This document shows positions 14,301 to 16,135 of a DNA stretch of 32,000 nucleotides, one piece after another. The position numbers and the translations under genes are program-made. The stretch's first letter is position 1. Each line of letters begins with the position of its first letter. The DNA lies in NCBI RefSeq assembly GCF_000354175.2, contig NC_022349.1, positions 1,020,001-1,052,000 of the forward strand. Reading direction: 5' to 3'. Origin of the DNA: Vibrio alginolyticus NBRC 15630 = ATCC 17749. Lineage in GTDB: Bacteria; Pseudomonadota; Gammaproteobacteria; Enterobacterales; Vibrionaceae. The notes under the pieces were generated by a model, which was given only the letters and a program-made list of their open reading frames with translations, had not been told where the DNA came from and ran no database searches.

Positions 14301-16135
14301 CTCGATGGCATAAGTATAGAAACATTCTCTCCGATTAGTTCTTCTCTAACACGTCCAAATATAAGTTCAGTTGATCGATTAATATCTAATACAATTCCAT
14401 TTTTGTCGATAACAACGGTGCCATCTAAAGCGGTATCAAATACCGTTCTTAATCGAGTCTCAGACTCTCTAGCTTCTTTTGTTCTAGTTTGTATTTCTCT
14501 TTCCAGCTTAATCTTTGTCTCTTCTTCACGTCTTTTTATCTCTGTTATATCAGTAATGATACCAATGAAATGTGTGATTTTATTTTCATCATCAAAAACT
14601 GGGTCAATTCTTAAATTATTGTAGAATAATGTTCCATCTTTACGGTAGTTCCGCAAAATAACAGATATAGATGAGTTGTTTTTTAGAGCCTCACGTATCG
14701 CCTCCAAACCATCTTGTTCTTTATCGTCACCTTGTAAAAATCGACAGTTTCTACCAAGAACTTCCTCTTTAGAATAACCTGTAAGAATTTCAAAAGCTCT
14801 ATTTGCAAAAATAATTGGATAATCTTCCCGATTAATATCAGTAACAATTATTCCTGATGCTGTAGAGTCTATTGCTTTACTCTGAATATCTAACAAAAAC
14901 TTTTGTTCATCCGTTTCTTTCGTCAGCCTTTCTCTTTCGATAACAATTTCTTTTAAATTATTAAGCTCTGCTACCATAACCGCTAGTTCATTTTTACCGT
15001 AAATAGCAGGAAGCTCTATATTCTTCTCTCCACTTGCTAATCGCTTAATACTCAGCGCTAAGGCACTTAGCGGACGAGCAATCTGTTTGCCCAAATAGAA
15101 TGATACTAGTAAAATCAAACCCAAAATTAGTATTGAAAGAAGCAATGTATTTTTAAAAAGGGAGTCAGACTCGTAAAATGCTTCATCAACACCAACACGA
15201 ATCATTGCAGACCAACCCAGACCAGGGTAATCATAAGCACCACTGGTATGTGCGTAACCTGTAACTTGTTGCACTTGTTTTCGAAAATGTCTTGAAATAT
15301 TAGACCCACTGAGCCCTGCGACCGCCAGTCTTGCTCCCTCGACACCATTATTTGCTAGATTCAAACGACTTAAGACACTAAAATCTCGTGTATATCTTGA
15401 CTTACTCTGTCCAACAGGATCATAGTCCACGATAATTCTTCCTTGATCATCAAGGATGGTTAGCTCTGCACTTTGCAGCCCTCGGCTTGAAAGTAGCTCA
15501 TATGTTTCCTCAACTATCTTTTCGACCGCGCTAAAATCGACGACATTTACCCAAAGTCCTATACTTTGACCATTAGCGTTGCGAATAACTGATGCAAAAA
15601 GCATATCGAAAGAGTTAGAGTCATTATCAATCAAATATCGATTCGGACCCGTTACATAACTGCTTTCTGGTTGCTCTGGCTCAAGCGTAAGACCATTCAT
15701 AGCCTCTTGAAACCAGATGCTATCACGTATTTTACTAGGGCTTATATCAAGATCTATGAGTTCCTTTCCAAAAGGATTTTCAGAGTTGCTAGCTAAAACA
15801 TTTCCATTAGAATCAAATATTATTACTCGTCTATACACCTTATAATTTCTTACAAAATCATTTAGGTTATCTATAACTTTAGGACTGAGAGCGTTTTTGT
15901 CTAAATAATTCACTTCAAATTGACCTAAAGAAAGTTTAAAAGCCTGTACATCGTGATATCGTTCAAATAAATTTCTCTCTATTAGTCTAATTAATAAAGT
16001 GGCTTCCCTTTCTATATTTGTTAAAGTGGTATCCTGAAGAATATCTTTACCTTTCCAAGAAACAAATGTAACCGCACTTAGCATAACCAAACTTAATATA
16101 AAAAATAATAAAGGTAACTTAATAGAAAACTTCAT
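11348..16135 (-). CDS. Giant (1595 aa) membrane hybrid sensor histidine kinase: TM, Cache-like periplasmic domain, TM, HAMP, LOV-PAS, FixL-like PAS, PAS, PAS, HisKA, HATPase_c, receiver-like spacer, REC, Hpt
   Basis: TM1 is aa 7-27 and TM2 is aa 329-347. The H-box is ATMSHEIRTPMNG (H975, nt 13211-13213). The N-box is LLNLLGNAIKFT and the G-boxes are DDNGVGM / GGTGLGLSI. The REC reads ILCAEDQPTN...LVLTDCHMPRMDG (D1387, nt 11975-11977)...ALTA...TKP. The Hpt reads RNLAHGAKGAATSSG (H1540, nt 11516-11518). The PAS domains are described in separate entries. Confidence 0.92.
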   Translation of the reverse strand: MKFSIKLPLLFFILSLVMLSAVTFVSWKGKDILQDTTLTNIEREATLLIRLIERNLFERYHDVQAFKLSLGQFEVNYLDKNALSPKVIDNLNDFVRNYKVYRRVIIFDSNGNVLASNSENPFGKELIDLDISPSKIRDSIWFQEAMNGLTLEPEQPESSYVTGPNRYLIDNDSNSFDMLFASVIRNANGQSIGLWVNVVDFSAVEKIVEETYELLSSRGLQSAELTILDDQGRIIVDYDPVGQSKSRYTRDFSVLSRLNLANNGVEGARLAVAGLSGSNISRHFRKQVQQVTGYAHTSGAYDYPGLGWSAMIRVGVDEAFYESDSLFKNTLLLSILILGLILLVSFYLGKQIARPLSALALSIKRLASGEKNIELPAIYGKNELAVMVAELNNLKEIVIERERLTKETDEQKFLLDIQSKAIDSTASGIIVTDINREDYPIIFANRAFEILTGYSKEEVLGRNCRFLQGDDKEQDGLEAIREALKNNSSISVILRNYRKDGTLFYNNLRIDPVFDDENKITHFIGIITDITEIKRREEETKIKLEREIQTRTKEARESETRLRTVFDTALDGTVVIDKNGIVLDINRSTELIFGRVREELIGENVSILMPSSYAHEHDEYIRKFLFTGDKKLIGTPRKVKGLHKSGRVFPIEISVGETKVDDSQVFVGIIKDITSQEDTKQRELMLQNELREREVIYRAAFSQAAVGICRVSLEGSFIEVNDKMCDIFGYSEKQLLCMSVEEVTHLDDLNKSRAMMSLLIEGKKRSFSIDKRYLSKEKGIFWATVSVSAVLDDDNQPKYFISVIEDISNRKKIEKELRSAKRSRDELLRGMRLASDAGGISNWVLNTESGVFKWDDKMYELYGVQKGTKLSVKDWEGAIHPDDYEQATNAFTKSLETKEVFNAEFRIINQDTDQIRWIKAAGDVVFDKESGDEMVFGVNVDITDEKDAQAALERETLSAKQANAAKSRFLATMSHEIRTPMNGVIGMVDLLKETNLSTDQHSMVRTIRDSSFSLLEIINDILDFSKIESGKIELDLTTVNILSLIEKTLDALWVNAHQKGIGLYLYFENTIPQELLLDTVRIRQVLLNLLGNAIKFTSSEEKKGVIKLCVSYQNNSLRISVDDNGVGMSPEQVSRLFTPFVQADSSTTRKFGGTGLGLSISRSFVELMGGQIEVSSKLGYGSCFSFSIPAEPNESSPALYSYELSSFKVVLKIDDENLSHIVRKMLLDLKVADIFDEIEKLTNQSESSIIYIGDQANQLDENSKFRVLEVIDNPTAIKGYIKPNKYVIGTHPFKPSDFIAALAVLSGKESPDFDWSECLYGKDNCQFDSNDKDKSGITILCAEDQPTNQLVLSQQLDHLGFSYDMASDGKEAFERWSEGDYDLVLTDCHMPRMDGFELTSEIRRVEEMRGEGRTLIIALTANAMLGEAEHCLEAGMDDYITKPVELKTLNKVLSLRLRGKTLRNKSDTKLIETSHMNSIEKANFSKLIDYDHLSAVIGSDNVEMQKAVLSMFWDNIVRDIEKLEAAIKEANLELVRNLAHGAKGAATSSGVLSLGFLFKRLEENYVNARKVDSLMREIKQLIKQVESQLMQENII
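14108..14452 (-). other. FixL-like PAS domain (candidate heme-binding O2 sensor) in the giant kinase, aa 562-676
   Basis: The sequence is VVIDKNGIVLDINRSTELIFGRVREELIGENVSILMPSSYAHEHDEYIRKFLFTGDKKLIGTPRKVKGLHKSGRVFPIEISVGETKVDDSQVFVGIIKDIT. It aligns motif-for-motif with the Bradyrhizobium FixL heme-PAS as I recall it (GQNVNILMPEPDRSRHDSYISRY...[27 protein letters not shown]...FTGFVRDLT). H617 (nt 14285-14287) sits at the proximal-His position. Confidence 0.55.
14540..14863 (-). other. LOV-type PAS domain (candidate FMN-binding blue-light sensor) in the giant kinase, aa 425-532
   Basis: The sequence is GIIVTDINREDYPIIFANRAFEILTGYSKEEVLGRNCRFLQGDDKEQDGLEAIREALKNNSSISVILRNYRKDGTLFYNNLRIDPVFDDENKITHFIGIITDIT. 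It contains the canonical GRNCRFLQG with the adduct-forming Cys (C464, codon at nt 14744-14746). It also has NYRKDG, FxN and FIGxxxDIT. Confidence 0.85.
15152..16054 (-). other. Periplasmic sensor domain of the giant kinase (about 300 aa, Cache-like by size and sequence character)
   Basis: Aa 28-328 lie between two hydrophobic helices. The length and segments such as LFASVIRNANGQSIGLWVNVVDFS and GYAHTSGAYDYPGLGWSAMIRV resemble double-Cache sensor domains. I did not run an HMM. Confidence 0.5.

Follow-up and report, generated by a model that had tools for sequence, protein, structure and literature searches.

The 32,000-nucleotide stretch of the Vibrio alginolyticus NBRC 15630 = ATCC 17749 genome analysed here (contig NC_022349.1, positions 1,020,001 to 1,052,000; hereafter the window, whose numbering is used throughout) encodes a hybrid sensor histidine kinase of 1595 residues on its minus strand (11348..16135), assigned from the open reading frame (ORF), its Pfam domains and the exact protein in V. 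alginolyticus assemblies. An internal segment of this kinase resembles the flavin-binding LOV domains of blue-light receptors, yet carries isoleucine at the position of the signal-relaying glutamine of the Iβ strand. The locus therefore raises the question of whether this segment is a genuine LOV domain and, if so, whether it can still act as a light sensor inside a membrane-anchored kinase. We find that the segment is a LOV domain by sequence and predicted fold, and we consider it fairly probable that it is a photochemically competent, glutamine-less flavin LOV placed in-line in a dimeric, membrane-anchored, multi-input hybrid kinase, where it would serve as a slow-cycling blue-light input controlling cyclic di-GMP (c-di-GMP). 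All features of the kinase lie on the minus strand.

The kinase contains a LOV domain with isoleucine at the Iβ glutamine position

The LOV core comprises aa 425-532 (14540..14863) and reads TASGIIVTDINREDYPIIFANRAFEILTGYSKEEVLGRNCRFLQGDDKEQDGLEAIREALKNNSSISVILRNYRKDGTLFYNNLRIDPVFDDENKITHFIGIITDITE when translated from the minus strand; a plus-strand reading of the same interval was ruled out, its translation being riddled with stops. Pfam PAS_9 spans aa 430-532 of the kinase and the NCBIfam model YtvA_fam spans aa 419-548. In a phmmer search of the LOV segment against all PDB sequences, 151 matches are obtained at E<=1e-5, and the identifiable entries among the 60 matches listed are without exception LOV domains or LOV chimeras, led by PF5-LOV (7r5n, 7e-33), YtvA (4e-31) and AsLOV2 (2v0u, 1e-24). 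The AlphaFold 2 (AF2) model of aa 406-552, with a mean predicted local distance difference test score (pLDDT) of 93.7 and a predicted template modelling score (pTM) of 0.82, displays an A'α helix, a five-stranded core and a C-terminal Jα helix. When this model is searched with Foldseek, the best 50 PDB matches are all LOV domains, with TM-scores of up to 0.87 and a root-mean-square deviation of 1.3 Å. On the N-terminal side, a helical linker/A'α (aa 401-424, 14864..14935; AF2 helix at aa 409-423, model residues 4-18) joins the AS2 helix of the HAMP domain to the LOV core, and on the C-terminal side the DIT motif and a Jα-type helix (aa 531-556, 14468..14545; AF2 helix at model residues 126-146) lead to the next PAS domain, PAS2. 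The profile and structure checks that a preliminary description of this DNA had proposed, made here with PAS_9, YtvA_fam, and AF2 with Foldseek, all agree with LOV.

The flavin pocket is preserved in the alignments as well. The motif GRNCRFLQG (aa 461-469) provides the adduct cysteine expected of a LOV domain, Cys464 (14744..14746), which is the predicted site of the flavin C4a adduct and corresponds to C62 of YtvA and C450 of AsLOV2. Specifically, the equivalences to YtvA are N463=N61, C464=C62, R465=R63, Q468=Q66, R481=R79, N496=N94, N506=N104, G525=G121 and I527=Q123. A BLASTP alignment with AsLOV2 runs for 106 residues without a gap, the numbering differing by 14 throughout, and gives C464=C450, I527=Q513, N496=N482 and N506=N492; the phmmer match to 2v0u corroborates it. 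The residues that contact the flavin ring and phosphate in AsLOV2 (N449/R451/Q454/R467/N482/N492) are all kept, as N463, R465, Q468, R481, N496 and N506. The remaining signature position, that of the Iβ glutamine (YtvA Q123/AsLOV2 Q513), is occupied by Ile527 (codon ATT, 14555..14557), so that the segment displays the sequence signature of a glutamine-deficient LOV domain (LOV-ΔQ), NCRQRNNG plus I. I527 is kept in 12 of the 12 members of the V. alginolyticus cluster whose sequence covers it, and C464 in every member that covers its position.

The preliminary description had read the LOV consensus at aa 425-532 in just these motifs, and GRNCRFLQG, AIREAL, NYRKDG, FYN and FIGIITDIT are all found, with C464 as it numbered it and the Arg of AIREAL at R481; its placement of Ile at the relay-glutamine position (FIGII, I527) is borne out by both alignments. 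Misassignment of the cysteine or of the flavin-contacting residues was also looked at, and the YtvA and AsLOV2 alignments uphold C464 and the Asn, Arg and Gln assignments. Taken together, aa 425-532 is a LOV domain as judged by sequence, predicted fold and flavin-contact residues, with the Iβ glutamine as the sole exception.

A second position of note is Ile430 (14846-14848), which aligns with the kinetic-tuning position V28 of YtvA (V416 of AsLOV2); among the orthologs this position is I, V or T. The equivalents of V28I and Q123I are thus combined naturally in the kinase, a pairing near to the V28I:Q123L double variant that has been tested in the engineered kinase YF1.

Ile527 belongs to a described class of glutamine-less LOV receptors

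What loss of the glutamine does to a LOV domain has been mapped by Dietler et al. 2022 (Nat Commun 13:2618, PMC9098866), who swapped the glutamine of YF1 for all 19 other residues. In that Q123 screen the light response is kept in most variants and abolished only by Pro, His, Trp, Tyr and Arg (PMC9098866). Flavin binding and adduct formation persist in the Q-to-L variants of YF1, PAL and AsLOV2, which show a blue shift of ~8 nm, roughly half the signal amplitude and a slower dark recovery (10-fold in YF1, 1.2-fold in PAL and 22-fold in AsLOV2); the exchange also raises light sensitivity (PMC9098866). Crystal structures at ~1 Å reveal light-induced changes that are alike with or without the glutamine, and a transient water was proposed as the relay (PMC9098866). 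The V28I exchange by itself slows dark recovery of YF1 ~10-fold (PMC9098866). The same study lists ~350 LOV receptors in nature that are without the glutamine and have "predominantly" Leu and Ile in its place; for one of them, a Mesorhizobium LOV-GGDEF protein with Met, it demonstrates light responsiveness (PMC9098866). The Iβ glutamine is accordingly now treated in the literature as conserved but dispensable (PMC9098866).

In our own match set, an aliphatic residue (in most cases Leu, otherwise Ile or Ala) occupies the Iβ position of 26 proteins from outside the gene family of the kinase, all with the NCR motif preserved. Because of these proteins and the ~350 natural cases, Ile527 is a member of a described class, whose likely consequences are already mapped and point to a mild phenotype. 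The earlier suggestion that the substitution could alter photocycle coupling was right in direction and is already explained by this work (PMC9098866), whereas the idea that it signals a non-canonical mechanism is not supported, the substitution being known in nature with photocycle and signalling kept (PMC9098866).

The LOV domain sits behind a dCache-HAMP module and beside a FixL-type haem PAS

The exact kinase protein (AGV16805.1) is present in many V. alginolyticus assemblies, where it is annotated just as "PAS domain S-box protein" or "histidine kinase". Its N-terminus is built as a transmembrane sensor. The first transmembrane helix (TM1, aa ~7-27, 16055..16117) is marked by a Kyte-Doolittle peak of 2.53 in a 19-residue window over aa 1-29 and by a long N-terminal AF2 helix, and the second (TM2, aa ~329-349, 15089..15151) by a hydropathy peak of 2.68 over aa 324-353. 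Between them lies a periplasmic double-Cache (dCache) domain (aa ~30-322, 15170..16048). Pfam dCache_1 scores 29.3 bits here, below its cut-off of 45, so that support for the dCache assignment is structural: the AF2 model of aa 1-400 (pLDDT 86) matches dCache ligand-binding domains from kinases and chemoreceptors (3lif, 2p7j, PctA and Tlp3) in Foldseek (E 1e-9 to 1e-11), and by both tools it has the long N-terminal helix and the two PAS-like modules between transmembrane helices that characterise dCache_1 sensors. A HAMP domain follows (aa ~348-400, 14936..15094), scoring 23.5 bits in Pfam against a cut-off of 25 and modelled by AF2 as a helix-loop-helix (321-367 and 383-399); PF00672 (HAMP) and dCache_1 are both recorded for many orthologs.

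Three further PAS domains lie between the LOV domain and the kinase core. PAS2 (aa ~557-675, 14111..14467) is a predicted haem-binding PAS of the FixL type. It matches RmFixL (1d06) at 7e-28 and BjFixL at 2e-23 in phmmer against the PDB, and NCBIfam sens_FixL_Rhizob spans aa 553-690. Its homology extends across the full haem domain, with ILMPssyaHEHDEYI...LIGtpRkV aligned to ILMPepdrsRHDSYI...IIGigRiV of FixL, and it has equivalents of the haem-domain His and Arg: H617 corresponds to the proximal histidine H200 of BjFixL and R637 to R220, while R206 is replaced by Lys. The proximal histidine is nearly invariant in the orthologs. From these sequence features, PAS2 is probably a putative O2 sensor that adjoins the light sensor within one natural kinase. 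PAS3 (aa ~691-817, 13685..14065) is assigned by TIGR00229 sensory_box at 691-817 and Pfam PAS_8, and PAS4, of the PAS_3 type (aa ~835-945, 13301..13633), by Pfam PAS_3 at 852-931 and a match to PDB 3nja at 7e-9.

The catalytic region (12563..13243) consists of HisKA (aa 965-1030, with H975 in SHEIRTP) and HATPase_c (aa 1078-1191), identified by Pfam and by the H-box, N-box, G1 and G2 motifs. It is followed by a receiver domain (Pfam Response_reg, 11780..12121, with D1387 in DCHMP) and an Hpt domain (Pfam Hpt, 11378..11614, with H1540 in HGAKG). H975, D1387, H1540 and the N, G1 and G2 boxes are all intact, and orthologs show almost no variation in any of these motifs. The protein thus unites a LOV domain and an intact core for dimerisation/histidine phosphotransfer and catalysis (DHp/CA) on one polypeptide, as a LOV histidine kinase does. 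The soluble layout free of transmembrane helices and HAMP, which is typical though not strictly defining of characterised LOV kinases, is absent here.

These results agree with the architecture first proposed. The module of transmembrane helix, Cache, transmembrane helix and HAMP ahead of the LOV domain is recovered as two hydrophobic segments, a dCache fold and a sub-threshold HAMP, and the view that characterised LOV kinases are soluble, making this context unusual, is in line with a review stating that LOV histidine kinases are mostly soluble, without transmembrane helices and HAMP (Moeglich 2019, PMC6798134). The count of three more PAS domains after the LOV domain was also right, and PAS2, PAS3 and PAS4 are now located; the FixL-type haem nature of the first of them had been missed.

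The Iβ residue and the adduct cysteine vary within the gene family

Full-length orthologs of the kinase, at 40-87% identity, occur in several Vibrio species, Salinivibrio, Photobacterium, Pseudoalteromonas, Shewanella and Hahella. An exhaustive HMMER search with aa 1-545 against 1.84 billion cluster representatives finds ~20 clusters (at 50% identity) that share the entire dCache-HAMP-LOV N-terminus, and this architecture appears to be confined to the gene family of the kinase. Further matches with a dCache-HAMP-PAS layout (the kinases P0051, P0098, P0106 and others) were checked and contain PAS domains without LOV signatures. A LOV-only search of a 5.8-billion-protein set is dominated by short LOV proteins of ~150 aa and is uninformative on architectures. 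A scan of genome contigs with the alignment query gives, among the matches listed, generic LOV loci (L001-L080, 39-52% identity) and no Vibrio orthologs. A 95-aa fragment that is 99% identical to the LOV domain (P0121) is labelled "Staphylococcus aureus" and lies on a 287-bp contig; the assembly in question almost certainly contains contaminating Vibrio DNA.

Most members of the family have Gln as the Iβ residue; others have I, L, E, S, H or M. Ile is found in V. alginolyticus, Vibrio sp. 11-4(1), P0019 and P0025; Leu in P0003, V. coralliilyticus (P0007), P0024 and P0258; and Glu in P0030 and P0299. As reconstructed on a neighbour-joining tree, Gln is ancestral in the family, and at least five independent replacements have occurred in which the cysteine was kept. 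The Iβ codon is ATT in V. alginolyticus and CTG in the Leu-bearing sister P0003, which is consistent, at the codon level, with a route from Gln (CAG) to Ile by way of Leu. On the same tree, at least five independent lineages have lost the Cys/NCRFLQ motif itself while retaining the domain at the same position, as for example in the V. tritonius clade, which has GRSIGFLH; the Cys-less orthologs are P0020, P0022 and P0023 (V. tritonius clade), P0259, P0260, P0261, P0269 and P0287. The preliminary description was correct about the substitution at the glutamine position, and had missed this evolutionary lability across the whole family.

When the two Ile-bearing species V. alginolyticus and Vibrio sp. 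11-4(1) are compared, the ratio of nonsynonymous to synonymous substitution rates (dN/dS) is 0.115 for the LOV segment and 0.098 for the whole gene. Because dN/dS is ~0.1 and C464 and I527 are kept throughout the V. alginolyticus cluster, the LOV domain in the Ile clade is, on these substitution rates, maintained under purifying selection and not decaying.

The kinase forms a conserved, possibly mobile module with a REC-EAL response regulator

Immediately upstream of the kinase, and on the same strand, lies a gene for a REC-EAL response regulator of the c-di-GMP phosphodiesterase type (16135..17418; Pfam EAL 4.5e-57, REC 1.3e-19), whose best NCBIfam match is PvrR and whose stop overlaps the kinase ATG by 1 nt. 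Its start is ambiguous: the longest ORF, from TTG, gives 427 aa, and a 400-aa product is called in most assemblies. Downstream of the kinase, also on the minus strand, a 305-aa gene (10410..11327) encodes a GAF-like region and a degenerate GGDEF-like region, both recognised by sub-threshold Pfam matches; a GGDEF motif was looked for in this protein and none was found. No terminator-like sites were found between the genes of the module.

The REC-EAL, kinase and 305-aa genes are also adjacent in V. europaeus (L085), Vibrio sp. 11-4(1), a metagenomic relative, Pseudoalteromonas luteoviolacea (L088) and Salinivibrio (L089), and the flanks of the three-gene module are unrelated between those genomes. 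The 305-aa gene is followed in V. europaeus and P. luteoviolacea by a further gene, for a REC-domain protein of ~381 aa. In the window the module is held in a low-GC island (~10000..17500), with a GC content of about 0.32-0.41 against 0.43-0.47 in the flanks. The low GC, the patchy taxonomic distribution and the unrelated flanks together suggest that the three-gene module is a horizontally acquired or moved cassette. A plasmid-borne module was considered, and megablast against PLSDB gave no match. The island is flanked by a second EAL-domain protein gene (7082-8797, plus strand; 571 aa, the N-terminal part without Pfam match) and by a gene for a HAMP-containing methyl-accepting chemotaxis protein (MCP) chemoreceptor (17718-19343, plus strand). 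The module and the flanking EAL and MCP genes make up a local cluster of c-di-GMP and chemosensory genes.

The pairing of an Hpt-bearing hybrid kinase with a REC-EAL regulator resembles RocS1/RocR and PvrS/PvrR, in which the Roc and Pvr kinases are paired with their respective REC-EAL regulators. We know of no LOV domain in Roc or Pvr kinases.

Proposed mechanism of a glutamine-less light input and its alternatives

We propose the following sequence of events. Under blue light, Cys464 would form an adduct with flavin C4a, and N5 of the flavin would become protonated. Without the glutamine, the N5 signal would reach Iβ, the DIT motif and Jα by a glutamine-independent route, through a transient water and steric and dynamic changes, as in the Q-to-L variants. 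From the published mutants, Ile527 is expected to give a blue-shifted spectrum, an attenuated amplitude and a slower dark recovery, and hence higher sensitivity at low photon flux, and Ile430 would reinforce slow cycling and low-fluence sensitivity. As suggested by the architecture, A'α of the LOV domain would be continuous with the HAMP output helix and Jα with the linker into the haem PAS, placing a LOV dimer in series in a coiled-coil spine, where it would modulate periplasmic dCache signals and be modulated by them. By virtue of this continuity the kinase would therefore integrate periplasmic ligand, light and probably O2. A His-Asp-His phosphorelay (H975, D1387, H1540) may then pass the signal to the co-transcribed REC-EAL protein and change c-di-GMP turnover, as the operon structure suggests.

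Several points weigh against this proposal. The photochemical residues are evolutionarily labile and, because the cysteine was lost in at least five lineages, light sensing may be dispensable for the core function of the family. The REC-EAL protein is assumed to be the partner of the Hpt domain from gene order alone. Ile, unlike Leu, appears to be covered solely by the 19-substitution reporter screen in YF1 and not by work on purified protein (PMC9098866). Since Q-to-L halves the amplitude in YF1 and AsLOV2, coupling in the V. alginolyticus LOV domain could, by analogy, be weak. In addition, a search of the literature on LOV proteins in Vibrio, V. alginolyticus and Vibrionaceae found no study of the kinase.

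The alternative that survives best, which we regard as unlikely while giving it some weight, is that the flavin-binding domain acts mainly as a redox or structural relay, a dimerising PAS that passes the HAMP signal on, rather than as a light sensor, and that loss of the glutamine marks the beginning of a relaxation of photosensory constraint toward the Cys-less state. The variability of the Iβ residue in the family (Q, I, L, E, S, H, M) fits this idea, as does the independent loss of the cysteine in several lineages that retain the domain and its helices in place; the cysteine is present in just 57% of the LOV-containing PAS cluster (PMC10468136), and there is a precedent in RmcA of P. aeruginosa, a membrane-anchored multi-PAS protein in which a Cys-less LOV-like domain is linked to redox and light (PMC8846402). 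Relaxed constraint would, however, predict drift, whereas the Ile clade strictly keeps the cysteine and the six flavin contacts with dN/dS of ~0.1, and hydrophobic replacements keep photocycle and signalling in every LOV domain tested (PMC9098866).

A further alternative goes beyond the tolerated glutamine-less light input that we favour, for which Ile527 is neutral or tolerated, by taking Ile527 and Ile430 as adaptive tuning toward a very slow photocycle, high light sensitivity and a slight blue shift, suited to the dim blue light of the sea. In its favour, the glutamine has given way to Ile or Leu on at least five independent occasions without loss of the cysteine, and the change from Gln to Ile takes at least two nucleotide changes, with the Leu (CTG) intermediate present in a sister lineage. 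Additionally, Q123L and V28I each bring ~10-fold slower recovery and a smaller light dose needed, and the kinase carries the equivalents of both. Such recurrence is equally expected under mere tolerance at the site, however, and V28I:Q123L in YF1 gives no further gain, with sensitivity slightly reduced (PMC9098866), so that adaptive tuning seems to us distinctly improbable. Chance resemblance of the LOV-like motifs in an ordinary ligand-binding PAS domain, to which the match to only generic PAS_9 might point, Pfam being without a LOV-specific model, is effectively refuted, because the segment matches solved LOV domains specifically at E 1e-25 to 1e-33, PAS2 of the kinase reaches the same LOV entries only at 1e-4 to 1e-5, the signature residues align gap-free, and the fold matches are exclusively LOV.

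Comparison with characterised LOV proteins and related sensors

Natural LOV-ΔQ proteins share with the V. alginolyticus domain the adduct cysteine, the flavin contacts and the missing Iβ glutamine, with Ile and Leu predominant (PMC9098866). The tested example, in contrast, is a soluble Mesorhizobium LOV-GGDEF(-EAL) protein with Met, whereas in V. alginolyticus the residue is Ile, the protein is a hybrid kinase anchored in the membrane, and Gln occurs in close orthologs. The LOV domain of YtvA and YF1 (2pr5, 4gcz), at ~40% identity, is likewise a dimeric-type bacterial LOV with A'α and a DIT-Jα coiled-coil output, and its C62, R63, Q66, R79, N94 and N104 are the same in V. alginolyticus, unlike Q123 and V28, which are both Ile. 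In YF1 the LOV domain replaces the haem PAS of FixL, whereas in the V. alginolyticus kinase a LOV domain and a FixL-type PAS stand side by side, with three modules between LOV and DHp. PAS2 aligns with FixL of Bradyrhizobium and Sinorhizobium over the full haem domain, including the ILMP...HD.YI...IG..R.V motifs, and PAS4 weakly resembles FixL PAS-A; unlike in FixL, R206 is Lys, and PAS2 is one of four cytoplasmic PAS domains and does not adjoin DHp.

Brucella LOV-HK, Caulobacter LovK, Erythrobacter EL346/EL368 and P. syringae LOV-HK also place a LOV domain upstream of a histidine kinase, and in Brucella LOV-HK, whose structure 6pps is among the fold matches, a PAS domain lies between LOV and kinase as it does here. 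P. syringae LOV-HK is a hybrid with a receiver, like the V. alginolyticus kinase, and several characterised bacterial LOV kinases have HWE-type cores. The characterised LOV kinases are soluble with an N-terminal LOV domain (PMC6798134), whereas that of V. alginolyticus is internal, follows the TM-dCache-TM-HAMP module and is combined with HisKA, a receiver and Hpt. The parent of Chloroflexus aggregans CagFbFP (6rhf) similarly carries a LOV domain among several PAS-type sensors in a large hybrid kinase (E ~2.5e-27 between the two LOV domains), but of such multi-sensor hybrid kinases the isolated LOV domain alone has been studied. To our knowledge, no dCache-HAMP anchor or haem-PAS neighbour has been described for LOV hybrid kinases of the C. 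aggregans type. RmcA of P. aeruginosa, a c-di-GMP enzyme, is like the kinase anchored in the membrane and has several PAS domains, among them a LOV-like flavin PAS (PMC8846402); it differs in that its LOV-like domain is without the cysteine and is fused directly to GGDEF-EAL.

Implications for LOV signalling and for Vibrio

The change of Gln to Ile is itself already known; what the analysis adds is the tandem of LOV and haem PAS, the in-line position of a LOV domain behind dCache-HAMP, and the natural series of Q, L, I, E and Cys-less members in one orthologous family. LOV domains are the main blue-light tools of optogenetics, and the role of the Iβ glutamine is a central mechanistic question. 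The family offers natural proteins that differ at the Iβ residue on a conserved scaffold of 1,600 residues, with Q in V. europaeus against L in V. coralliilyticus and I in V. alginolyticus against L in its relatives, so that published mutational conclusions could be tested on its evolved proteins.

As far as we found, the kinase would be the first LOV sensor studied within a transmembrane dCache-HAMP kinase, although earlier cataloguing is possible, and it is the first LOV domain known to us beside a FixL-type haem PAS, which bears on how serial PAS domains integrate signals. Tentatively, and as a proposal we judge doubtful as a whole, the family might be a natural three-input integrator of periplasmic ligand, blue light and oxygen, with the LOV domain in series between HAMP and haem PAS as a counterpart in nature to the swap engineered in YF1, and in which the change of Gln to Ile or Leu together with Ile430 would adaptively set a slow, sensitive photocycle that gates c-di-GMP degradation via the REC-EAL protein. 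If this were true, the orthologs with Q, L, I, E or no cysteine would provide a natural series for testing glutamine-less LOV signalling and the combination of PAS signals across a membrane kinase. The genome of the related V. campbellii has been stated to have no LOV or BLUF photoreceptors (PMC3380642); the V. alginolyticus kinase described here is a candidate blue-light input to c-di-GMP signalling in Vibrio.

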